A stretch of DNA of 63,995 nt, the filler included, from Porpidia crustulata (lineage: Eukaryota): NCBI GenBank assembly GCA_964255105.1. It is 7 parts of 7 records of this genome, joined end to end, with 100 filler letters (N's around TTAATTAATTAA, not from the genome) between each part and the next. Parts side by side here need not be neighbours in the genome. Positions count along the whole stretch, not along the records: positions 55,668 to 63,995 come from CAXUWE010001134.1; 6 more parts are not named here. One strand, given 5' to 3'. Below, one piece after another: positions 3,805 through 63,995 of the stretch. Position 1 is the stretch's first letter; every line of letters begins with the position of its first letter. Made by a program: the position numbers and the translations under genes. The notes below the pieces were generated by a model. It had not been told where the DNA came from, searched no databases, and was given only the letters and a program-made list of their open reading frames with translations.

Positions 3805-6370
3805 ATGACTCTCTCGAAATCTCCTCTACACAATCTGATACTCAGAATTTGCAAGCCTTCCAAACATAAATTTTCAAGATACTCATGTAGAATGGCGACC
3901 ACCATCACACAACCTTCCTGGCATCAGCCATTCCTTTCTGCCACTTCAAAGTCTCACATACCTGCTCTGAAATTATGGAATTCTTTAACGCGCACCAAGA
4001 CGCCTTTCATTCCTCTCGATCCTGAAGGACGGAAGATTACGTGGTATGCTTGTGGGCCGACGGTCTACGACGACTCGCATCTCGGACACGCTCGAAATTA
4101 TGTCACCACGGATATTCTTCGCCGTTTACTGCGAGATTACTTCAAATTTGATGTCCGATTTGTTATGAATATAACAGATGTAGACGATAAGGTAGACTTG
4201 ATGTCGATGAATTATTTGGTTGCCGGCTGAGATTTCCTAGATCATTGTTAGAGGCCGGCAACAATATCTTTATTCCAAATTCGTAGTCGAGCATCCCATA
4301 ATTGACGATGATGTCTTACACACCGTGAAACTGGCATGCATAGCTTATATAAAGAAGAATCTACCTTTGATAAGTGCCGATATTCCGCATGCACGCTTTC
4401 AACGAGAAGCCGAGAAGGCATATGCGACTATTCTAAGTGGCGGATTGCTTGAAGGGAGCAAGAAGCCTGGGGACAAGGAAGCCAAGATTCCGATGCACAT
4501 CAAAACGGTGTCATTAGCAAGCAAAGTACTAGACGATACAATCCCGCTATCAGGAAATGTCTCTGCAGAAGCTTTCTATGCAAGCCCTATACAGGATGTC
4601 TTACTCTTCTACTTTGATATGCTGCACGGCTCATCTATTGATGGGGACGATCATTCTATCTTCACCAATCTCACTAAAAGGTTCGAGGATCGGTTCATGC
4701 AAGATGTTCGAGATCTCAACGTGCTTGATCCGGATGAGGTGACCAGGGTTACGGAGTATGGGCCACAAATCATTGACTTCGTCGACAAGGTTGTTCAGAA
4801 TCGATTCGCATACACTACATCAGATGGCTCGGTGTATTTTGACATTGAGGCATTTGAGAATGCGGGCAACACTTACACGCGGCTAGAACCCTGGAATCGT
4901 AGCAATCAGCCTCTTTTGGCAGATGCCGAGGGGTCTTTGACAGACAAGTGGCCTGAAAAACGGTCGCAAACCGACTTTGCCTTATGGAAAGCCTCACGGC
5001 CTGGAGAACCCAGCTGGCCAAGTCCTTGGGGTAGGGGCAGGCCTGGTTGGCATATTGAATGCTCAGCTATGGCATCGGACAGGCTAGGTAAGCAGATTGA
5101 TATACATTCAGGCGGAATTGATCTTGCATTTCCTCACCACGATAATGAGCTTGCTCAAAGCGAGGCTTTTTGGTACAAAGACGATGGGAATAACTCGCAG
5201 TGGGTCAACTATTTTCTGCACATTGGACATTTATCAATATCTGGAGCGAAAATGTCGAAATCTTTGAAGAATTTTACAACCATCAGGGAAGCTCTTACCA
5301 GGGGGACATGGACCGCAAGAAGTCTGAGAATCATTTTCCTACTTGGTGGATGGCGCGAGGGCGTAGAAATAACTGAAGGTCTTGTTGAGACCGGGAATGC
5401 CTGGGAAGAAAAGGTGAACAACTTCTTCCTGAATACGAAGGCATTTGTGCTGCCGGAAGACGCCATTTCAAACTCCAATAGTGTGCTTACCATGGCGCTC
5501 AGAAAGGCGCAAGCTGCTGTTAAGGAGGCTCTACTTGACTCGTTCAACACCCCCAAAGCGATGAGTGCGTTATCAGAGCTGGTGTCCGACTACAATAATA
5601 TGGACAAATCAGAACTAAATCCGCAAGAAATTAGGACCACGGCACTATGGGTGACTTCCATGGTCAATATCTTTGGTCTCAATGGTGTAGCTTCACCCAA
5701 TAGTATGGATATTGGCTGGGAAGGAATTGATATTCTGGAGGTTGCTAAACAATATGTCTATCCTTTGTCTACAATGAGAGATTCGCTTCGAGAAATTGCC
5801 AGATCAAAAGATGGGTTGAACGTTGAAAAGCTGAAGCAAATTGACAAAGCTAAGGAAACTGCCGAAGAAGAGCCTTCAGATTCGGCAAAGCCTTACGCAA
5901 ATCTTCTTTCCAATTTCCGAAAAGATGTACGCGCTCTTGAAGGATCAGCGAATCAGTCTCAAGATATAATGGTTCTTTGCGATCGCGTACGTGACATTGA
6001 TCTCTTCGATCTTGGCATTTACCTTGAGGACAGAGAGAATCAGTCTGCTCTAGTTCGGCCCGTATCCAAAGACCTCATCCAAGCCCGCGAAGAGAAAACA
6101 AAGCGAGCCGCACAAAAACAGCTGGAGAAGGAGAAAAGAGAGCAAGAGTCATTGCAGAAGGCAGAGAAAGGCAAGCTCAGTCATCTAGACATGTTCAAGA
6201 CAAGCGAATTCAGTGCATGGGACGACGACGGTCTGCCGTTGAAAGATGCAGCCGGGGAAGAGCTCACGAAGAGTCGGACGAAAAAGCTGCGGAAGGATTG
6301 GGAGCGGCAGAAGAAATTGCATGAAACATGGTTAGCTAGCAATCCAGCACCATTGACGGCAAAGCCTTGA
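3805..6370 (+). CDS. CRS1: Cysteinyl-tRNA synthetase (class I); two in-frame ATGs at 3805 and 3892; one intron at about 4192-4240
   Basis: [17 protein letters not shown] (HIGH-type motif), NITDVDDK^[37 protein letters not shown] and KMSKS. Confidence 0.95.
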
Positions 6371-55259: not shown

Positions 55260-55567
55260 GCCGTCGAGCCATCGACCCCCCCTCTTCTCCCCTCGGCAAT
55301 CGCCCTCCTCCCCTTGGCAATTTTCTTTCTTTTCGTCTGGTGTATAGGTTTTATTCCATGTGGAGCTCGGTGTTCTTGGTGGGCTGGTTGGGGGGGGGAT
55401 TGAGTCGAGGAACCGTGGTGTAGACTAGGCGTTCAGGACAGGTAGATACTGTTGGGTCGACAACATTAATTATTGAATTGGAATCTTTTCTGAATTGACA
55501 CAGACACATCTGCTTTTACTGCATCGATATCAACATGATATGTACACCTCCTTCCCAACCCCTTCCT

Positions 55568-55667
55568 NNNNNNNNNNNNNNNNNNNNNNNNNNNNNNNNN
55601 NNNNNNNNNNNTTAATTAATTAANNNNNNNNNNNNNNNNNNNNNNNNNNNNNNNNNNNNNNNNNNNN
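55568..55667. other. Artificial contig linker
   Basis: N44-TTAATTAATTAA-N44. Confidence 0.98.
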
Positions 55668-56455
55668 GCTTTAGAGCCGGCATCGGATTTTCATTGGCAT
55701 TTCACACTTTGGTAAAATAATTTCCAAAACATGTCGATGTTTTAGGCAAGTGATAAGCTGTTTTTGCCGACCTGTCTTAGATTGCTGCTTTTTTATAGTC
55801 TTTTACTATTTTGAAGCTCGACTTGTTCTATTGATAATTCACATGGGTTGACATTTGATCAAAATCGAAGCCGTCTGTTTTGAGATTCCAAATAGATAAG
55901 AGAGGTTTTTCCTTATATTCAAAAGAGGAAATGAAATACCTTATCTTTCGTGTTGTCATCTTGTCAAGGTTTTCTAACTACAAGCGATAATATCAGTTCC
56001 TAATTACGGCAGAGGATCTATATCAGGGGTACATCGTACCTGGAATCTTTCGAGTCTCCGTATCGGCAATTGACTGCTGTAGATAGGCTTTGTAATTGGT
56101 TTGTTGTCTGGAGAATTAATTCGCTGTGATTTCTCAATCGTCTCAATGCTGGAAAAGGCTTGATGGTGCACTTGTAGTGTTAATATCTTTAGACCGTCAA
56201 TGATCTATTACCGTCTCTAATCTCGTTCAAATCGCCATTTGGTATGACTATTTTTTCTTTTTTACATTGAAGTGCTATTTCTATCGTATAGACATGGAAA
56301 AAGTCTCGAATCCATAAATACTTGGAGAATCTTTCGAAAAGCCATACAAAGTCTTAGGGACGAAGTTCGAAGTTCTTACGTGTCATGCCTGCTGTTGCTA
56401 GTCACCGGTCTGCGTCTCGTCACTCATAACGTTTCTGGTGGTAGCTGGCTGCGTT

Positions 56456-59400
56456 TCAGCTGCCAGTGCTGTCTTTTCCGCCGTCGTAGGTTTTGGAGAA
56501 CTTCTGCGCATCGTCTCTCGTGCTTGCGGACTGCGCGACTGCCGCAAAAGGATTATTTTCATTGGGCCTGTGGCTGGTCTGAAACGGATCGGGGAAAAGG
56601 CTGCCCGTTTGCGCCGGTTCTGCGGGTGTAAGAATGCTTGATGCAGTCGACGTCGTCGACTTGGACGTGCTGATGACCCTGGAGCCGAAGGCCGGGCTGG
56701 TCGATGCCTCTCTAGACGCGCCGAAGGGATTGCTTGATACTGTCGCCGTCGTCGGCTTAGACGTGCTCGCAGTCTTCGTGATGACCCCGAAGCCAAAGGC
56801 CGGGCTGGTCGATGTCTCTCTAGACGCGCCGAAGGGATTGCTTGGTAGAGTCATCGTCGTCGGCTTCGACGTGCTCGCAGTCTCCGTGATGGCCCTGGAA
56901 CCAAAGGCCGGGCTGATTGATGTCTCTCTGGACGCACCGAAGGAAATGCTAGCGGTAGGCATCCGCTTTGTGACTTCGAACGTATCATGGCTGGTAGAAG
57001 CAGTGACGTTCGTGCCAAACCCGTCTCTCGGCGTGGAAGAGGATGTCCCAAATCCGGAAAAACCGGTCGCACTTTGCAAAGGCGCGCTCTCTGTAGACCT
57101 CGCTATTGTGCCAAAGGCAGAGCCTGTCGTGGTCGAAGACGATGGCTGCACTGCTGCCTTGGAAAATCCTGTGGCAGTGGTCTCGGGAATTTTGGTGCTC
57201 CAAGGTGAGAGGTTTGTACCAAAGGAATAGCCTGTAGAACTAACCTTCGAAGTGTGATCATTGACAGCTATGGTATTAGAGCCGAAGAGGCCGCCCTTTG
57301 ATGAAACTCTTGGGACGTCACTATTGGAAGATATGGCATTTGAGCCAAACAGGCCTAGGGACGAGGTTTTGGGTGTGGGAGATGCGTCATTGAAACCAGG
57401 GAAAACGCCTACCGTCGATAAGGGTTCGGTTGATTCGAGTAAATTGCTCCTTGAAGGGGGTTGGGTGGATACGTTGTTACCGGAAGGAGCCGGGTTTGAA
57501 CCAAATGAACTGCCCCCGGAGACTCCATTCTCTTTTGAGAATAACCCGATTGTCTCATTATTGCTTCTCGAGATGCTATTGGTGGTAGAGGAGCCGAAGT
57601 TGGTAAAGCTCGAGACTACAGACTCTTTTCTAGCATCGTTAGTCCCAGTGTCGCTGCTTGTCCCAGCGGTTGTTGCTACTATCCCTTTTGTTCGAGGTGC
57701 AGATGCCCTGGCGAAAGCAATCCCGACCGCCAGCATTGGATGCGTTAAGGGCTTCACAGGCCAAGTGTGTGCTATAAACTCCAACTCTCCATTTTTCCTT
57801 TTCGTCTCGGGGTCAAGATAGATATGCATGCCCGTCTCATCGCCTTTACCCAGATTGAAAATACGACAGATCATATAGATGCTCGAACGGCTTTTGCCAC
57901 CCTCAATTCGCTTGTCCCGAATCTAGTACCGTGTGAGCGATTTCAAGCCTGAATGATAGAGGGCCTTACATGTCGTTTCTGGGCCTTACTCATGAAGAAA
58001 GGTTCTTGCCAGTCTGGACTCGTGATTGTCTTGATCTCGATGTGATACAGGGGTCTCGTGCTATCCCACAACCCTTGTGCTAGATATCCCTTTTGGGTCA
58101 AGAATTGGGTGAGCCCACGTGAATCATCTAGGTACTCAATATCAGCAATGGCACTTCGATCATTGCCTCTCTCGAGCCTATGATAGTCGGCGTGTATCTT
58201 GACTCGGTCTCTGATCTCGCTCTTCCAGTTCTCCAAACCGAATTTTGGCAGACCGAGTCCCTTCAAGTATTCGAACATATAAAGTTCCCCAGCAGCTCCA
58301 ACCTTGAAATCCCGTTCTTGCGTGCGAGTTGCGAAAGCTTCTCGAATAATTCCCTAAGGCAATGCTGTATTGACCGCTGGACCCGGAAAAGAGGCCCCGT
58401 TCGACTCGAAAACGCCACAATGTACACGTTGTCTTGCAACATTGACGACATGTTCGAGGATGTGCTTGTAAGCTGTCTCCTGAGCCTCTCTCTGCCGGTC
58501 CTGATATAAGGGGTTCGACATGATCTTATCGCGTACGTCCTCCGCATTTTCACTTCCGGATTGCCTTTCTCCGCGTCTCGCCCAGTCAACGGGTGTGAAC
58601 GCACGTGGACCAGGAATTGGAGTGGAAACCCTGATATTGCTGGTAGCCTCGACCAGAATCTCAAAGTCAGACCCAGCTTCTGACGCCCCAAGCTCTTCAT
58701 CCAGAGCAGCAAAGTCACAATCAACTTGACCCACTCCTGCGTTCTCGAGGATTTTGTCTATAACTGCCGGGTTGTCTTTCCGAAATACGCCTCCAATAAC
58801 GCCTGGTGCACCTGAATCAGTGATACTCAAGAATGTACACAATCTTCGAGGAAGGTCGGATTCGAAGCAAACATCGCGTTCAACCTCGTCCTTCGGTAAG
58901 TAGAATCGCAGGGCACCTTCTGCTTACTCAAAATGTAGGTTCGCTCGGCTTAATGCGCCCTCAATGCTGCGTCCATACTGCGTGATCTGCAGTGAGCGTC
59001 TGATGCCGTTGCTCACGTAGACCAACGCGCGCTTGAACTTTCGATATAGCGAGGCTACGTCCTGTCTTTTGTTTAGGCTAGTAAAATGAAAAGCACATCT
59101 GTACTAGTGTCAGCCATCTGAAGCCTCATTGCTATTTCATGTTTCTATCAAGGTCCTATGACGAATGACATACCGGACAATAGCCTGACTTTTGATGCGG
59201 AGATTTCTGGTCGTCTCATGATCCTGGGAGCCTCCCCTTACTTCTGTGACTTCTTTCACAAGTTTCGAAGATTACCGTTCTCCCAAGCCCATGGCTAGGA
59301 GAAGTGGTCTGGTATCCCTGATTTCTTCGAGAGAAAAGTCCAAAATCACGATTTTGCCCTTAAAGGCATCCCAGTGAATGGTATTTTCCGGAATCGCAAA

Positions 59401-62400
59401 ATCTACGAAGTCATCCTTGGAAGAAGCTGAGGCGAAGCTGCCCACCCCATTTGCAAGCTTTATTGGTAAGACTTTAGCCTTGACAAGGCTCGAGAGATCT
59501 GTTTCTCCGACACCCATCCCGCAAATCAGTGTCATAGTCTCCTTGATTTGCGCTGCTGATGCTATTCCTTTAGCCCCAGCTTTCAGTGAATCAATGTACA
59601 TCTCGACGGTTGGCTCCGAAATCTCGAGGACTGTTGTGAAGAATGTCTTCTTCAATGGATATGCGTCAGCAATGGAAATTTTCCACGGAATCTTAACACT
59701 CGACTCTACCCAGACGCATTGCGACGGACGGCGCCAAGCGTTCTCTTTTGGAATGTACACCAAGGCGGAGTCTTCGAATATAGACTGCAAGGCGTCTTGG
59801 CTTTCGAGGTTCTCGCCATTTGTCAGGATCGAATGCTTCTGCCACAGGTAATCGTATCGCTTCTCAGCTTCCTCCATGATCTTATCAATTTCGAGTCCAG
59901 CGAATGCTCTTGATATACAGACTGAGGTCTTAGTGCTCAGTGGTTTGCTCCCTGTATTATAATCTTTTAGACGGAGCTCCTTTCAAATGCAATTAGTAAA
60001 GTCTTGTTCGTCAACGGCAAGATCTGTTTACCTCAAATGATTGCTTTTCATATGCCTTCATGAACTAATGCTCTGAAAATTCTCGGTGGGGCCAAAACCT
60101 CCCTCTACTGAAGTAACTTGATATGGCGCGCCGACGGTTCCAATGTTCGGTCGAGTGTAGACGGTGGATTGGCTTCCTAAGGCATTCTTATCTCCACTCT
60201 CGCTCTTCAACATGAGCAGATCATTAACGACATCTATTTGAGAAGCATCGGGAGTTCTTAGAGACACCTTGAAAAGATGCTCAAGATCAAGGTAGACCTC
60301 GATTTTCAAACACTGCTTTGACTTGAGCCACTGCGGACCATCCCAAACACAGTCTGTAATTGGAACCCAGGTAGAGTCGATCCTGTTTGATAATTGTATC
60401 CAGATGATAGGATGCCTGAACGTATCACTAAATACTCGTTAGTCGGGAAAGGGGCCAAATTCTACAGAAGCATACCGAACATGATCAAGACCTTCACTAC
60501 ATTTCGACTGAATGTTCTGGTATATCCTAGCCAATTGGTGTTTTGCAGAAGTAGTGCTGAGCGCAGGGTTGACTGTTTTGAACGCCTCCAGGGCAGAGAT
60601 GTAGAAGTCCAGACTCTCCTCAATTCCGACTTGCAAGTCCTTTACAAATATCCATTCTAATCTTTCCTCATCTCGAAGAGGCTCGGATATGGTAATGAAA
60701 GGACATGCGTCGACAACATGGAGCTCCGCAGCGATTTGCTTAAGCTTGGGCAGGGGCAGGAATGTGCGTAGTAGAGGTGTCCTGCGTCCATTTTCAAGAA
60801 GCACAGCGCTGTTCCGCAGCTCTCCCTCCACGAAATTGTTGATCTGAGGGCGATAGTATGCCCATCCACGCTTTAGAGTTCCTAGCAGCATATTCGATCG
60901 GTGACTAATGATATACTGAAATTCTTTCGACAGTCCACCATAGCCTTTGGCACGAAGCTCGGGTATTCGGCGGACCCCGACTATTTCTTCAAGCCATTTG
61001 ATCCACGGCCGACCGTTGTGCAGAACTTTAGGATCAACCGCCTTCAAATAATCTTCATGTAGATAATTTACCGGAAGGCCAGAAAGCTGGGCATTATGTT
61101 TGAAGAGTTTTGATGGGCCGTAGTCATCTCCTTCCTCAGGAAAGTACAGGTATTGGTCTTTTCTTAGTAGAGAGCCGTTCTGATTGGCAAGTCGGGCCTG
61201 CGGAGCCAAGCTCGAATGGTCTTTCGGAAGGTAGTAATACAAATATCGGATGTGAGCAACAGCATTGACCACTGTGAAGTTGTCAAGGTTTGTAGCACTG
61301 TAGCGTTTGTAAATCAACTCGATCACAGAATTTGGTGGGCAGTTCATCACGCCTAAATTTGAAAGAAGATCTACCCAGGCAGCATTCTTGGCAGCCATAG
61401 GGCAGACGAGATCGAGGCCGATATCTGCAGGAATAGGAGTACCATCACTTTTGGGGAAGTATATTTTGGTCCGAGAAACGCTGGATACCCATTTGCCGTC
61501 ACGCAATGGAATCAAGACAAGCTTTCTCAAGCGCGTTTGGTGACTGAGGGAGTTCTTAATGAAGGCTCTTGAAAGTACCTTGCAGATCCGAGTACGCCAG
61601 TCGTCATTTTCCATCATAAATCTCCATTTCGAGCCGTCCGGGGTGCGGAGATCAGCGTCTAGACGGTCAATAAACTTGTCCCACTTAAGTATTGTTGTCT
61701 TCCAACGTTTGAGTATCTGGAAGTCTGCTTCTGTGTACTTCGGTGAGAGGTAAATTTCTGCACCTTCCAGATCCGGTAACAAAGGACCTTGATCTTCGGC
61801 GATAACACTTTCGGACAGCTTCTCGAGGTCCGAAGGCTTGTAAAGACCATTACCGTTCCATGGCTCTAAAAGGGGAGTCTGCTCGAGCTCCTCGCTAACC
61901 AAGGTCCACAGTGTCCTCCAAAACTCATCTGCAATGGAATCATCAGGAAGGTATCTCATCCACTGATACCTAAGCGATGGATGCTTGCAGAAAACCACCA
62001 CGGCATCCTTAAATGCTTCGGCGACCCCTTTCAGAACAGCTTAGTTCCTTTTGGAATGTACAACATCTTCCCGATTGGCTTGAGTGACGAAGTCAGCTTG
62101 GATTAAAAACTTGAATCCTACTCGACGCAAGGGCAAGAAAGCGTAGGTATACTGCTGCTTGAGGACTGGCTTATCGTGCTCATCCACCGGAAAAGCGAGA
62201 ATGACTTTTGCCTGGTCAATGCTGTTTTTTTGCCTGTCTATTCTCGCCTCGTCGAAAGGGAGATTGTGAAGGTCCCTCTTGATGGAATGATATCTTCGTT
62301 ATGAAATTGACTCTTTATTGCCCTTGCGCGTAGTCTTTGCAAGGAATGTCGTGTATAGCCCATCTTCTTCGGTTTCTCGTTCCGAGTATTGTGTGGCCGT

Positions 62401-63157
62401 AGGGGCATTGCCTGGTTGGCATATCTCTATAGACAGTCGCTGTAACTGAGTCAAGAACATCAGGAAAGTGTCAGGGACGTCCCGGAATTCGGAAGCCCGC
62501 TCCTCGAATTTGGTAGAATCTAAGAGCGTCAATGTCATACGCGTGCGCACACCCATTGGAAGCTCTTCAGCGTCCTCATAGTACGGTGTGATCATGCCCA
62601 GGCCATCGTCATCGTCCTCTCGAGTATGCGAAAAGGCAAAAGAGAACGGCCCGGACTGAATGTGCACCTCCCGTACAATCTTGAATACGGACTTGAAGCC
62701 AATGCCCTTCTCACCGATATATCCTGCACTGTGCTTCTTCGTAGATTTGCCAACGGCGCAGATGGCTCTGATGTTGCTTTCGGAGAAGCCATCCTCATTC
62801 GAGTCAATGATGATTCTATGTGGATAGAGTTTGAAGGCTAGAAACGGCTCTTCACCGTCCGCCGTCGCTGTAAGGTACGAGTTGTCTTCAGCGTTCTGTA
62901 TGAGCTCATATAGAAAGCGAGTTTCTTTCGAATAGAGATTATTGACAACACTGTAAAGGTCAGTCGGATTCTCTAGATGCAAAGGTGTGATACATCTTGA
63001 TAGAGTCCGCGAGCTGTCTTCGTGTGTTTTGCAATGCTCGCAGCGCAGATGCCCGATTAGCAACTAGAAAGGCCCGGTCCTCCACCGTGATGCCGCCATT
63101 GACTTCCCTTACTCCTGTGATGATTTTGCGAGCCCCTTCTTGGGAGAGATTCGACAT
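56456..63157 (-). pseudogene. Sacsin/NO VEIN-like GHKL ATPase + C-terminal DUF3883-type PD-(D/E)xK nuclease, with internal GLEBS motif and FG-rich tail; disrupted
   Basis: GHKL motifs ELIQNAEDN, NEDGF and IGEKGIGFKSVF; FLIQADF..NRE; nuclease-like GAAGELY..ADIEY..HIEIKT..FFMS..Q..RIF. Five in-frame stops and one frameshift; exons are otherwise collinear across five introns. Confidence 0.82.
56640..56955 (-). repeat. 108-bp (36-aa) tandem repeat x ~3 in the FG-rich tail
   Basis: Unit (S/P)FGASRE.S.SPAFG..I..TASTSKPTT...SN. DNA copies start near 56685, 56793 and 56901. Confidence 0.85.
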
Positions 63158-63835
63158 CCTCAAGAGCAGAATTTGACGATGAGAAATGCTTAGTTGATAA
63201 TGCTAATACACGATCAACCCTATTAACGAAAAGCCAAAAGCAAGGACGACGATGAGATCCAAGTCTGTAAGTTCTCTGAAACGGCGAGCAAGGCTGAAAG
63301 AAAGGGACCAGGCAGGTAGAGAAGACAACCCATCGCAGGGGGTATATGCGGTCTCCTAAAGCCGCGTGCGAGCCATCTTGACAGCCTCATGCAGCTGATG
63401 TGTGTGATAGATACAGAAAAGGGCGCAGTAATTCCGCTCTGTACACTCCGTTCTGGCGTCTCTGGGCGGGTAAGATGATTCCAGTACTGTGGGATTGAAA
63501 CCCCCCAACCCCTTTGCAACCAAACATCCAATCTCCCTCCTCGACCACGATCTTAACCAATCGACCCGCACTCTCGCTGCGAAGTAAAATCATAACCCCA
63601 TCTGCCAACCCGTAACCCAAAATGCTCTTCCCGCCCTCCAGTTCAAATATCACTAACAAAACAAAAAAAAAATCGATCCAGTAGGTAATTGAGTAGAATT
63701 CCTGCTAAGCTACATAATTTGTGGCTAATTATTCCTTCTCGCTTAGAGGCGAAAATGATGATGCAATCAGCTAGTTGCTTCTTGATTAGTAAGCAAGTTT
63801 ATATAAAAAAAGAAAGCGAGTTCACGAGCACTTTA

Positions 63836-63995
63836 TGTAACGGTTGTTCTAATAACAACACAACATATAAACAGAGATACAAATGAGTAACGAACTCTTA
63901 TAGCTACTAGACTTGCAGGTCTGGGAATAGCTTAGACAATAGAACTGATTGTATTGACTATTACATGAGTTGAGCACGAAGCTCCTATCTAAGGG
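63836..63995. mobile_element. Possible LTR edge (retrotransposon or solo LTR) running off the window
   Basis: AT-rich segment starting TGTAACGG (reverse reads ...CCGTTACA), a terminus typical of fungal gypsy LTRs. No second end or TSD is visible. Confidence 0.25.

Follow-up and report, generated by a model that had tools for sequence, protein, structure and literature searches.

A Nup98-type GLEBS motif and an FG-repeat tail in a decayed Tiamat/NO VEIN-like ATPase-nuclease gene of Porpidia crustulata

How does a short linear motif of the nuclear pore come to lie within the gene for an ATPase-nuclease, and what would it do there? The question is raised by a locus of Porpidia crustulata (GenBank assembly GCA_964255105.1) contained in a stretch of 63,995 nucleotides (the window), which joins seven parts from seven records of this genome; the part at positions 55,668 to 63,995 comes from CAXUWE010001134.1. 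Minus strand 60165-59950 of the window codes for a GLEBS of the Nup98/Nup145 type, the motif by which such nucleoporins bind Rae1/Gle2, and it does so inside a single 6.7-kb gene. An earlier note on this DNA had supposed that a GHKL-ATPase/nuclease protein captured a nucleoporin module. Sequence comparisons support such a capture of a Nup98-type GLEBS, given five orthologues with the motif, 57% identity to Nup145, an intron shared with Nup145, a tail of phenylalanine-glycine (FG) repeats, and a second clade of carriers. It can be proposed with moderate confidence that the gene in question combines an ATPase-nuclease with a GLEBS captured from Nup145 and with an FG tail, and that the intact proteins are nucleases stationed at the pore and bound to Gle2/Rae1.

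Within the window, the motif is spread over more than one frame. The minus-strand stop-to-stop open reading frame (ORF) 60058-60438 has as its last residues ...RPNIGTVGAPYQVTSVEGGFGPTENFQSISS, followed by TGA (its terminal residues are also written out as ...NIGTVGAPYQVTSVEGGFGPTENFQSISS, with TGA next). Read one base beyond this ORF, the strand gives F-MKAYEKQSFE and runs directly into GTAAAC, while ELRLKDYNTG opens ORF 59272-59982 in the same frame as the upstream part of the GLEBS; thus, one missing base (60062/60061) together with a 52-nt intron accounts for the split. Aligned to the orthologue and to the Nup145 GLEBS, the first exon part (60032..60165, minus strand) contains the N-arm (..GTVGAPYQVTS..) and the FQSIS-x-MKAYEKQSFE core, and the second (59950..59979, minus) contains ELRLKDYNTG. 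The missing base (60061..60062, minus) falls in the codon that follows FQSIS and precedes MKAY, an F or C codon in the orthologues, and it is also missing in the Logan contig of sequencing run X1. The intron, which is the third of the gene (59980..60031, minus; 52 nt, phase 0), starts with GTAAAC, has a CTAAT branch site, ends with AG, and interrupts the GLEBS at FE^ELR, the same place and phase as in Nup145 genes. Frameshift, MKAYEKQSFE, intron (60031-59980), and ELRLKDYNTG had all been described in the earlier note, and every one of these sequence statements holds to the base.

A motif that lies over three frames in the window, and whose separate pieces give no GLEBS match with Pfam, might be a chance likeness or the product of a chimeric assembly of a nucleoporin with a NOV-like gene. 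The Pfam miss is explained by the split over frames, and the question was approached with a test that requires no joining: a GLEBS hidden Markov model (HMM), from which the window sequence had been kept out, was applied to each of the 3119 stop-to-stop pieces that the six frames of the window give. Three consecutive pieces, collinear with the motif, took ranks 1, 2, and 4, namely 60061-60438 (HMM positions 2-34, E 4e-4), 60014-60064 (positions 35-45, E 1.8e-3), and 59275-59982 (positions 46-55, E 0.14). When joined, the window GLEBS scores 63.2 bits (E 9e-22, as a single sequence). Chimeric misassembly had been named in the earlier note as grounds for abandoning its reading, and there is no sign of a chimeric join at the GLEBS locus. 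The Logan contig of run X1 equals window 56400-63200 (6801 bases) with 0 differences at a depth of 12, and relatives of about 92% identity span the gene in three further runs. The identity of the contig also argues that the lesions of the gene are not produced by the assembler, the raw data being probably shared with the window. Since the architecture recurs in five orthologues of other genera, an artefact of either kind is hardly credible.

The motif resembles the GLEBS of Nup98 and its relatives in detail. Pfam Nup98_GLEBS (PF21240) matches five of eight homologues, which are all five carriers, at 26.8, 24.2, 23.5, 21.8, and 18.4 bits (E 5e-6 to 2e-3). When P0002, a homologue of 1250 residues, is searched against the PDB, the four highest-ranking of 14 matches are peptides of the Nup98 GLEBS solved with Rae1 (7vpg, 4owr, 3mmy, and 7byf), and with a profile built from eight GLEBS segments, including that of a true Nup145 (alignment A1), Nup98 takes the first eight of 15 places (E 4e-8 to 2e-4). 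The GLEBS of orthologue P0003 is identical to that of the Nup145 of its own species (P0013) at 26 of 46 positions (57%, E 4e-10), and it retrieves P0013 from among 5.8 billion proteins at E 1.8e-4. A pair of glutamates (EE) in the GLEBS makes salt bridges to Rae1/Gle2 (PMC3783196); this pair does not vary over the eight rows of A1, and the window sequence has it too. The call of a Nup98-type GLEBS, made in the earlier note from the window alone, is thus borne out by best PDB matches that are Rae1-bound Nup98 peptides and by the identity to the species' own Nup145.

Because Bub3 is a WD40 paralogue of Rae1/Gle2 and also reads GLEBS motifs, the motif might instead bind Bub3 and send the enzyme to kinetochores or chromatin. 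This is quite improbable. The significant matches are all of the Nup98 type, and up to E 1 the PDB matches include no Bub1/Mad3 chain, either in the P0002 search or with the A1 profile. Moreover, the motif has the Nup-specific N-arm (G-x-x-x-P-F/Y-Q..T) in addition to its 57% identity to the own Nup145 and the intron shared with Nup145, and it is accompanied by FG repeats.

What kind of protein carries the motif? It is not a nucleoporin of the Nup98/Nup116/Nup145N family, since neither the window pieces nor the eight homologues match the autoproteolytic, nuclear-pore-anchoring domain PF04096; they do not match PF12110 either, whereas the real Nup145 P0013 matches PF04096 at E 7.6e-49, and PF12110 also. 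The gene (56456..63157, minus; six exons, 2145 codons) was modelled by tblastn with the closest homologues, introns being placed by homology; it is collinear with the orthologues P0001-P0006 and has 74-76% identity to P0001 (tblastn). Near its start lies a GHKL/sacsin-type ATPase domain (62404..62961, minus), identified by PADLOC TmtA (E 2.5e-49, residues 35-220 of ORF 62299-63063) and by Pfam SACS PF25794 (48.5 bits, above the cut-off of 32.8); the TmtA HMMs match six homologues at E 1e-66 to 1e-87, the values for orthologues being 1e-77 to 1e-87. A large helical core, which carries PF27504 as a precomputed label, lies between this domain and a predicted nuclease of the PD-(D/E)xK (NOV_C-like) kind (57749..58353, minus). 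The nuclease is split by intron 5 and is recognised by the conservation of its motifs GAAGEL, ADIEY, and IEIKT; the E..D..ExK pattern is kept in an alignment of 25 family members that includes the window. Pfam NOV_C (PF13020, DUF3883) gives sub-threshold matches at the equivalent place in six of 18 full-length relatives (14.2-19.4 bits, cut-off 22.1) and no match in any orthologue, and the TmtA HMMs do not match the C-terminal pieces of the window. The nearest ESM Atlas clusters bear the name of NO VEIN C-terminal domain proteins, with NOV_C in 18-77% of the cluster members.

These features also place the family. The gene had been called a sacsin/NOV-like ATPase-nuclease; the ATPase (TmtA, SACS) and the likeness to NOV stand, but by its sequence the family is more precisely a fungal Tiamat/NO VEIN-like one than a sacsin-like one. 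The human protein (SACS) shares the kind of ATPase domain but has three such domains against one here, and the window gene is not its orthologue; the window pieces and the eight homologues give a single SACS-domain match and no match to DnaJ (J-domain) or HEPN.

A second nucleoporin-like part of the gene, absent from the earlier note, is its C-terminal FG-repeat tail (56459..57748, minus). Its 430 residues contain 15 FG, two of them in GLFG, against two FG in the other 1715 residues of the gene, and Pfam Nucleoporin_FG matches it at 18.3 bits (E 0.004), below the cut-off of 32.2. Within the tail lies a 108-nt (36-residue) tandem repeat (56635..56950, minus) of about 2.5 copies with two FG per unit. 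In runs X2-X4, the relatives of about 92% identity lack 204-216 nt at this repeat, which argues that the repeat number differs between close relatives.

The intact state of the gene can be read from its orthologues. With the central ORF (533 residues) as query, 12 long homologues were found. The closest come from lichen-forming fungi of the Teloschistaceae (Wetmoreana, Pyrenodesmia, Ikaeria, Fulgogasparrea, and two Caloplaca-like taxa); public databases label such proteins 'hypothetical', and one has a precomputed PF21240 label. In five of them, P0002-P0006, all from other genera, the GLEBS is intact and lies at the same site as in the window, in an insert some 85 residues long for which the outgroup sequences P0007 (Xylographa) and P0008 (Cudoniella) have no counterpart. 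An FG tail is present in P0001, P0003, P0005, and P0006. The tails contain 13-21 FG per 368-430 residues and the bodies of about 1700 residues only 1-3, a density that is roughly 25-60 times higher in the tails, and the tail of P0003 aligns to the GLFG region of Nup145 (E 7e-7). Of the orthologues, at least P0003 and P0005 are full-length, with the GLEBS at residues 973-1027 and 970-1021, respectively. A search of fungi for intact proteins with both GLEBS and ATPase, which had been proposed as a check, has thus yielded five orthologues with an intact GLEBS, two of them full-length. As a side observation, the partial record of P0007 ends (residues 2115-2149) in an FG tail that closes, at the edge of the record, with what appears to be the first half of a GLEBS (..KFQSVT....YSFE). 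This end stays under the HMM threshold because it is cut off there; it would be a third arrangement of GLEBS and FG modules.

Where the GLEBS came from is indicated by the intron that interrupts it. A scan of metagenome contigs with the whole Nup145 protein found no relative, and an alignment of eight GLEBS rows was too variable; a two-row alignment of the GLEBS of P0013 and P0003 worked, and gave 15 loci (L001-L015) of three sequence types. All 15 are interrupted at FE^ELR, in phase 0, by an intron 49-56 nt long; the match region of L009, for example, is 6001-6236. All five of the loci that were checked by tblastn follow Nup145 collinearly from the GLEBS by way of the autoproteolytic domain to Nup96, and the NOV-like protein matches none of these five. 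In Nup145 genes of three fungal kinds, a short linear motif is thus interrupted midway by a conserved short phase-0 intron. Intron 3 of the window is identical to the intron of these Nup145-type loci in position and phase, as the earlier note had suggested should be looked for; in sequence, the introns agree at 47-53%, against 45-46% for shuffled controls, and so show no similarity beyond the controls. The shared phase-0 intron argues that the motif was copied from Nup145 as genomic DNA, and the restriction of the likeness to position and phase argues that this capture is old. Judged by the intron, then, the GLEBS is a copy taken long ago, as genomic DNA, out of the Nup145 gene of the fungus.

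The association of such an enzyme with GLEBS and FG repeats is found again elsewhere in the family. HMMER against 1.84 billion representatives gave 1352 family members. Among the best 150 of these, the GLEBS HMM finds the motif in P0071, P0085, P0094, P0107, P0113, and P0121; a follow-up search added the carriers P0163 (Hyaloscypha variabilis, 1957 residues) and P0164. In these eight carriers, the GLEBS occupies another site, inside the central domain and right behind a conserved ..YLY.. motif. P0163, P0121, and P0164 have 221-324 residues with 10-20 FG ahead of the GLEBS, which in P0163 occupies residues 893-948. In P0071, residues 341-510 hold three tandem, nearly identical copies of the motif with a few FG before them, and such a triple GLEBS might bind several Gle2 simultaneously. 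In a FastTree tree of 147 central regions, whose supports are less reliable than bootstraps and whose root is a midpoint root only, the eight carriers lie within a clade of 13 rows (support 99), far from a clade of 12 rows (support 99) that holds the Teloschistaceae and Xylographa sequences. The motif is absent from 22 of 26 fetched family proteins of at least 1400 residues. Two sites in two distant clades imply at least two captures; the comparison of sequences thus points to a gain of GLEBS/FG at least twice in the family. That a distant clade should gain FG and GLEBS at another place can be used as an argument that the association is selected rather than accidental.

The opposite view, in which a fragment of Nup145 was shuffled as a neutral passenger into a tolerant linker, where it has no function, and the FG-like tail is mere low-complexity sequence, would be in keeping with the placement of the insert in a poorly conserved linker, and with a window copy and several orthologue models that are broken or lack parts. 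It does not fit the pattern of conservation. Among the six Teloschistaceae sequences, mean pairwise identity is 70% in the GLEBS core but 36-40% in the linker on its two sides, and over the whole protein it is 63%. Across the two distant clades and Nup145, the EE pair and 11 columns of A1 do not vary. The occurrence of the motif in a second, independent clade, where one member has it in triplicate, and the excess of FG in the tail over the body likewise speak against a passenger, so that this view is improbable.

If the captured modules are instead functional, a plausible mechanism can be set out. In the intact proteins, the GLEBS hairpin would bind the WD40 mRNA-export factor Gle2/Rae1 through the conserved EE pair, and the FG tail would partition into the FG phase of the pore or bind transport receptors. 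Together, GLEBS and FG tail would put an ATP-driven nuclease at the nuclear pore and on the mRNA-export route. By analogy with bacterial Tiamat, a nuclease at this place would most likely inspect or destroy nucleic acids in transit, in a defence-type role.

Sequence does not separate plain localisation from a related possibility with which it is compatible, the integrated decoy or bait. Here, the GLEBS with its Gle2, together with the FG repeats, would not localise the enzyme but mimic the surface of Nup98/Nup145 that invaders attack or use for docking, and the binding of an invader (a virus, a retroelement, or an effector) would switch on the ATPase-nuclease, in the manner of the plant nucleotide-binding leucine-rich repeat proteins (NLRs) with integrated decoys. 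The family is kin to immune proteins (as seen in the TmtA matches and in the preprints cited below, which include HET-domain fusions of fungal members); the capture recurs at different sites and with one to three copies; the orthologues are patchy and decaying, as is typical of immune genes; and the matched PDB entries 4owr, 7vpg, and 7byf concern viral proteins that hit Rae1-Nup98. A fungal pathogen factor directed against Gle2-Nup145 is not known, no search for one having been made. As a reading in its own right, the decoy is unlikely, though its chance is not negligible. Somewhat less doubtful, but still tentative, is a broader view in which the repeated theft of FG and GLEBS by fungal Tiamat-like nucleases produced either a guard resident at the pore or a pore decoy that catches invaders. 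Retroelement particles, viral proteins, and perhaps foreign DNA would have to dock on the GLFG repeats or the Gle2-GLEBS surface in order to cross or sabotage the pore, and would be caught by the ATP-driven nuclease. If true, this would be an innate immune sensor made from nucleoporin bait, and a eukaryotic integrated decoy beyond the NLRs.

Against the reading of the intact proteins as Gle2/Rae1-bound nucleases of the pore, several points have to be set. The window copy is broken. P0001, the closest orthologue, lacks in its gene model the 57 residues that hold the GLEBS, and the models of P0002, P0004, and P0006 are truncated or have odd splicing: that of P0002 stops five residues ahead of the position of the window's third stop, that of P0004 runs on into intron 5, and that of P0006 skips from mid-protein to the FG tail, so that the nuclease is missing. 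Broken and odd models of this kind suggest that the gene may often be dispensable; those of P0001, P0002, P0004, and P0006 may reflect either frequent gene decay or problems of annotation. In addition, no PF21240 match reaches the Pfam cut-off of 27 bits; a true Ikaeria Nup145 itself scores only 15.5 bits, which argues that this cut-off is strict for these fungi. The Nucleoporin_FG matches are likewise all under their cut-off, at 18-21 bits against 32.2 (window pieces and homologues), and the window tail is more charged (D+E 6%, K+R 7.4%) than the FG domain of Nup145 (1.1% and 1.8%). The assignment of the nuclease to NOV_C is based on motifs and sub-threshold matches. Finally, the defence role is carried over by analogy from bacterial Tiamat and from the preprints on plant NOV.

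The copy in the window is a pseudogene, with five in-frame stops in addition to the one frameshift within the GLEBS. Four of the stops are TAA, at codon 272 (62299..62301; orthologues Q or E), codon 358 (62041..62043; Q, E, or K), codon 1248 (59272..59274; F or L), and codon 1339 (58924..58926; E or Q), and the fifth is a TAG at codon 1529 (58354..58356; Q), all on the minus strand. An apparent further stop, at 60439, was ruled out as a lesion, as it sits in intron 2. Repeat-induced point mutation was also ruled out as the source of the stops: TpA/ApT is 0.66, (CpA+TpG)/(ApC+GpT) is 1.26, and the G+C (GC) fraction is 0.49, all similar to the flanks. On the FastTree tree, the branch to the window sequence exceeds those of its relatives by little, which argues that the decay is recent. 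In contigs of close relatives (X2 and X4), one base is deleted at 60903, in exon 2, and one is inserted behind 57512, in the last exon, relative to the window. Run X1 also contains three contigs of 151 nt, with a depth of 2-3.6 and about 88-92% likeness to the gene, at 56579-56672, 58406-58495, and 59465-59615; they may come from a second, diverged copy of the gene or from a related fungus in the sample.

The gene has five short introns (43, 48, 52, 75, and 47 nt), of which the third is the one in the GLEBS. Intron 1 (62951..62993, minus; 43 nt, GTATCA..CTGAC..CAG) is one across which the orthologue alignment runs. The other three were placed by the gene model and the orthologue alignment: intron 2 (60428..60475, minus; 48 nt, GTATGC..CTAAC..TAG), which holds the apparent in-frame stop, intron 4 (59099..59173, minus; 75 nt, GTATGT..CTGAC..CAG), and intron 5 (57923..57969, minus; 47 nt, GTAAGG..TAG), within the nuclease domain. 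The neighbouring genes (Cys-tRNA synthetase, VPS9, JmjC, phospholipase D, and P450) have long open frames. Just downstream of the 3' end of the gene, positions 55500-56499 form an AT-rich stretch (GC 0.36, versus about 0.48 elsewhere) with no long ORFs.

How new is this arrangement? Compared with Nup98/Nup116/Nup145N, the GLEBS is alike in its length of about 55 residues, its N-arm, its FQSIT..Y core, its EELR..DY end with the EE pair, and its intron position and phase, and there are GLFG-type FG repeats alongside. It differs in that the host is an ATPase-nuclease without the autoproteolytic domain and without Nup96 (no match to PF04096 or PF12110), and in that the GLEBS of the window type lies in a linker of that host, apart from the FG repeats; its binding of Gle2 is predicted. 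Precedents for a GLEBS outside nucleoporins that recruits a WD40 partner of the Rae1/Bub3 type are Bub1, Mad3/BubR1, and BuGZ, but their motifs bind Bub3, are not Nup98-like in sequence, and do not occur among the PDB matches. NUP98 fusions arise by somatic translocation in human leukaemia and retain the Nup98 N-terminus as a block. Such fusion oncoproteins, of which NUP98-HOXA9 is one (PMC12627784), likewise join FG and GLEBS to a module directed at nucleic acid, and thus argue that FG/GLEBS modules function when transplanted; the present case differs in being an evolved germ-line gene, with GLEBS and FG either separate or as an internal insert. The pairing of BuGZ with Bub3 is described in PMC9203020.

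Tiamat (TmtA) is an antiphage ATPase-DNase with NO VEIN and fungal 'Tiamat-like' proteins among its homologues (preprints 10.64898/2026.09.30.754977 and 10.64898/2026.09.30.755639, October 2026). According to these preprints, defence function and ATPase and DNase activities are known for bacterial Tiamat only and are proposed for plant NOV. The present family shares with Tiamat/NO VEIN the TmtA-matching ATPase, the PF27504 core, and the C-terminal E..D..ExK motifs, and it is like the fungal Tiamat-like members of the preprints in that the N-terminal region of the plant and animal proteins is absent. The fusions that they report are with LOTUS, HET/het-6, CDK, and other domains. The words nucleoporin, Nup, and GLEBS are absent from the text of the preprints that was searched (their supplements, which lay outside this check, might list such proteins), and one of them mentions a single eukaryotic homologue predicted at the nuclear pore complex. 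Relative to the fusions described in the preprint text, the FG and GLEBS modules are the new element. Literature searches did not find GLEBS described together with sacsin, DUF3883, Tiamat, NO VEIN, or GHKL, and thus, the preprint supplements aside, they agree with the statement of the earlier note that no protein of this architecture has been described.

Taken together, these comparisons add a non-nucleoporin carrier to those of the Nup98-type GLEBS and provide a clean natural case of exon capture, in which the donor was an essential nucleoporin gene whose intron has been retained as a fingerprint. The proteins would also serve as natural constructs, with one to three copies of the GLEBS and with or without FG, for probing how transplanted modules behave. 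For the Tiamat/NO VEIN-like proteins, a defence family newly recognised in bacteria and eukaryotes, the two probable gains of a Gle2-binding motif and FG repeats would give a testable hypothesis of where the fungal enzymes act, namely at the nuclear pore and on the mRNA-export route.

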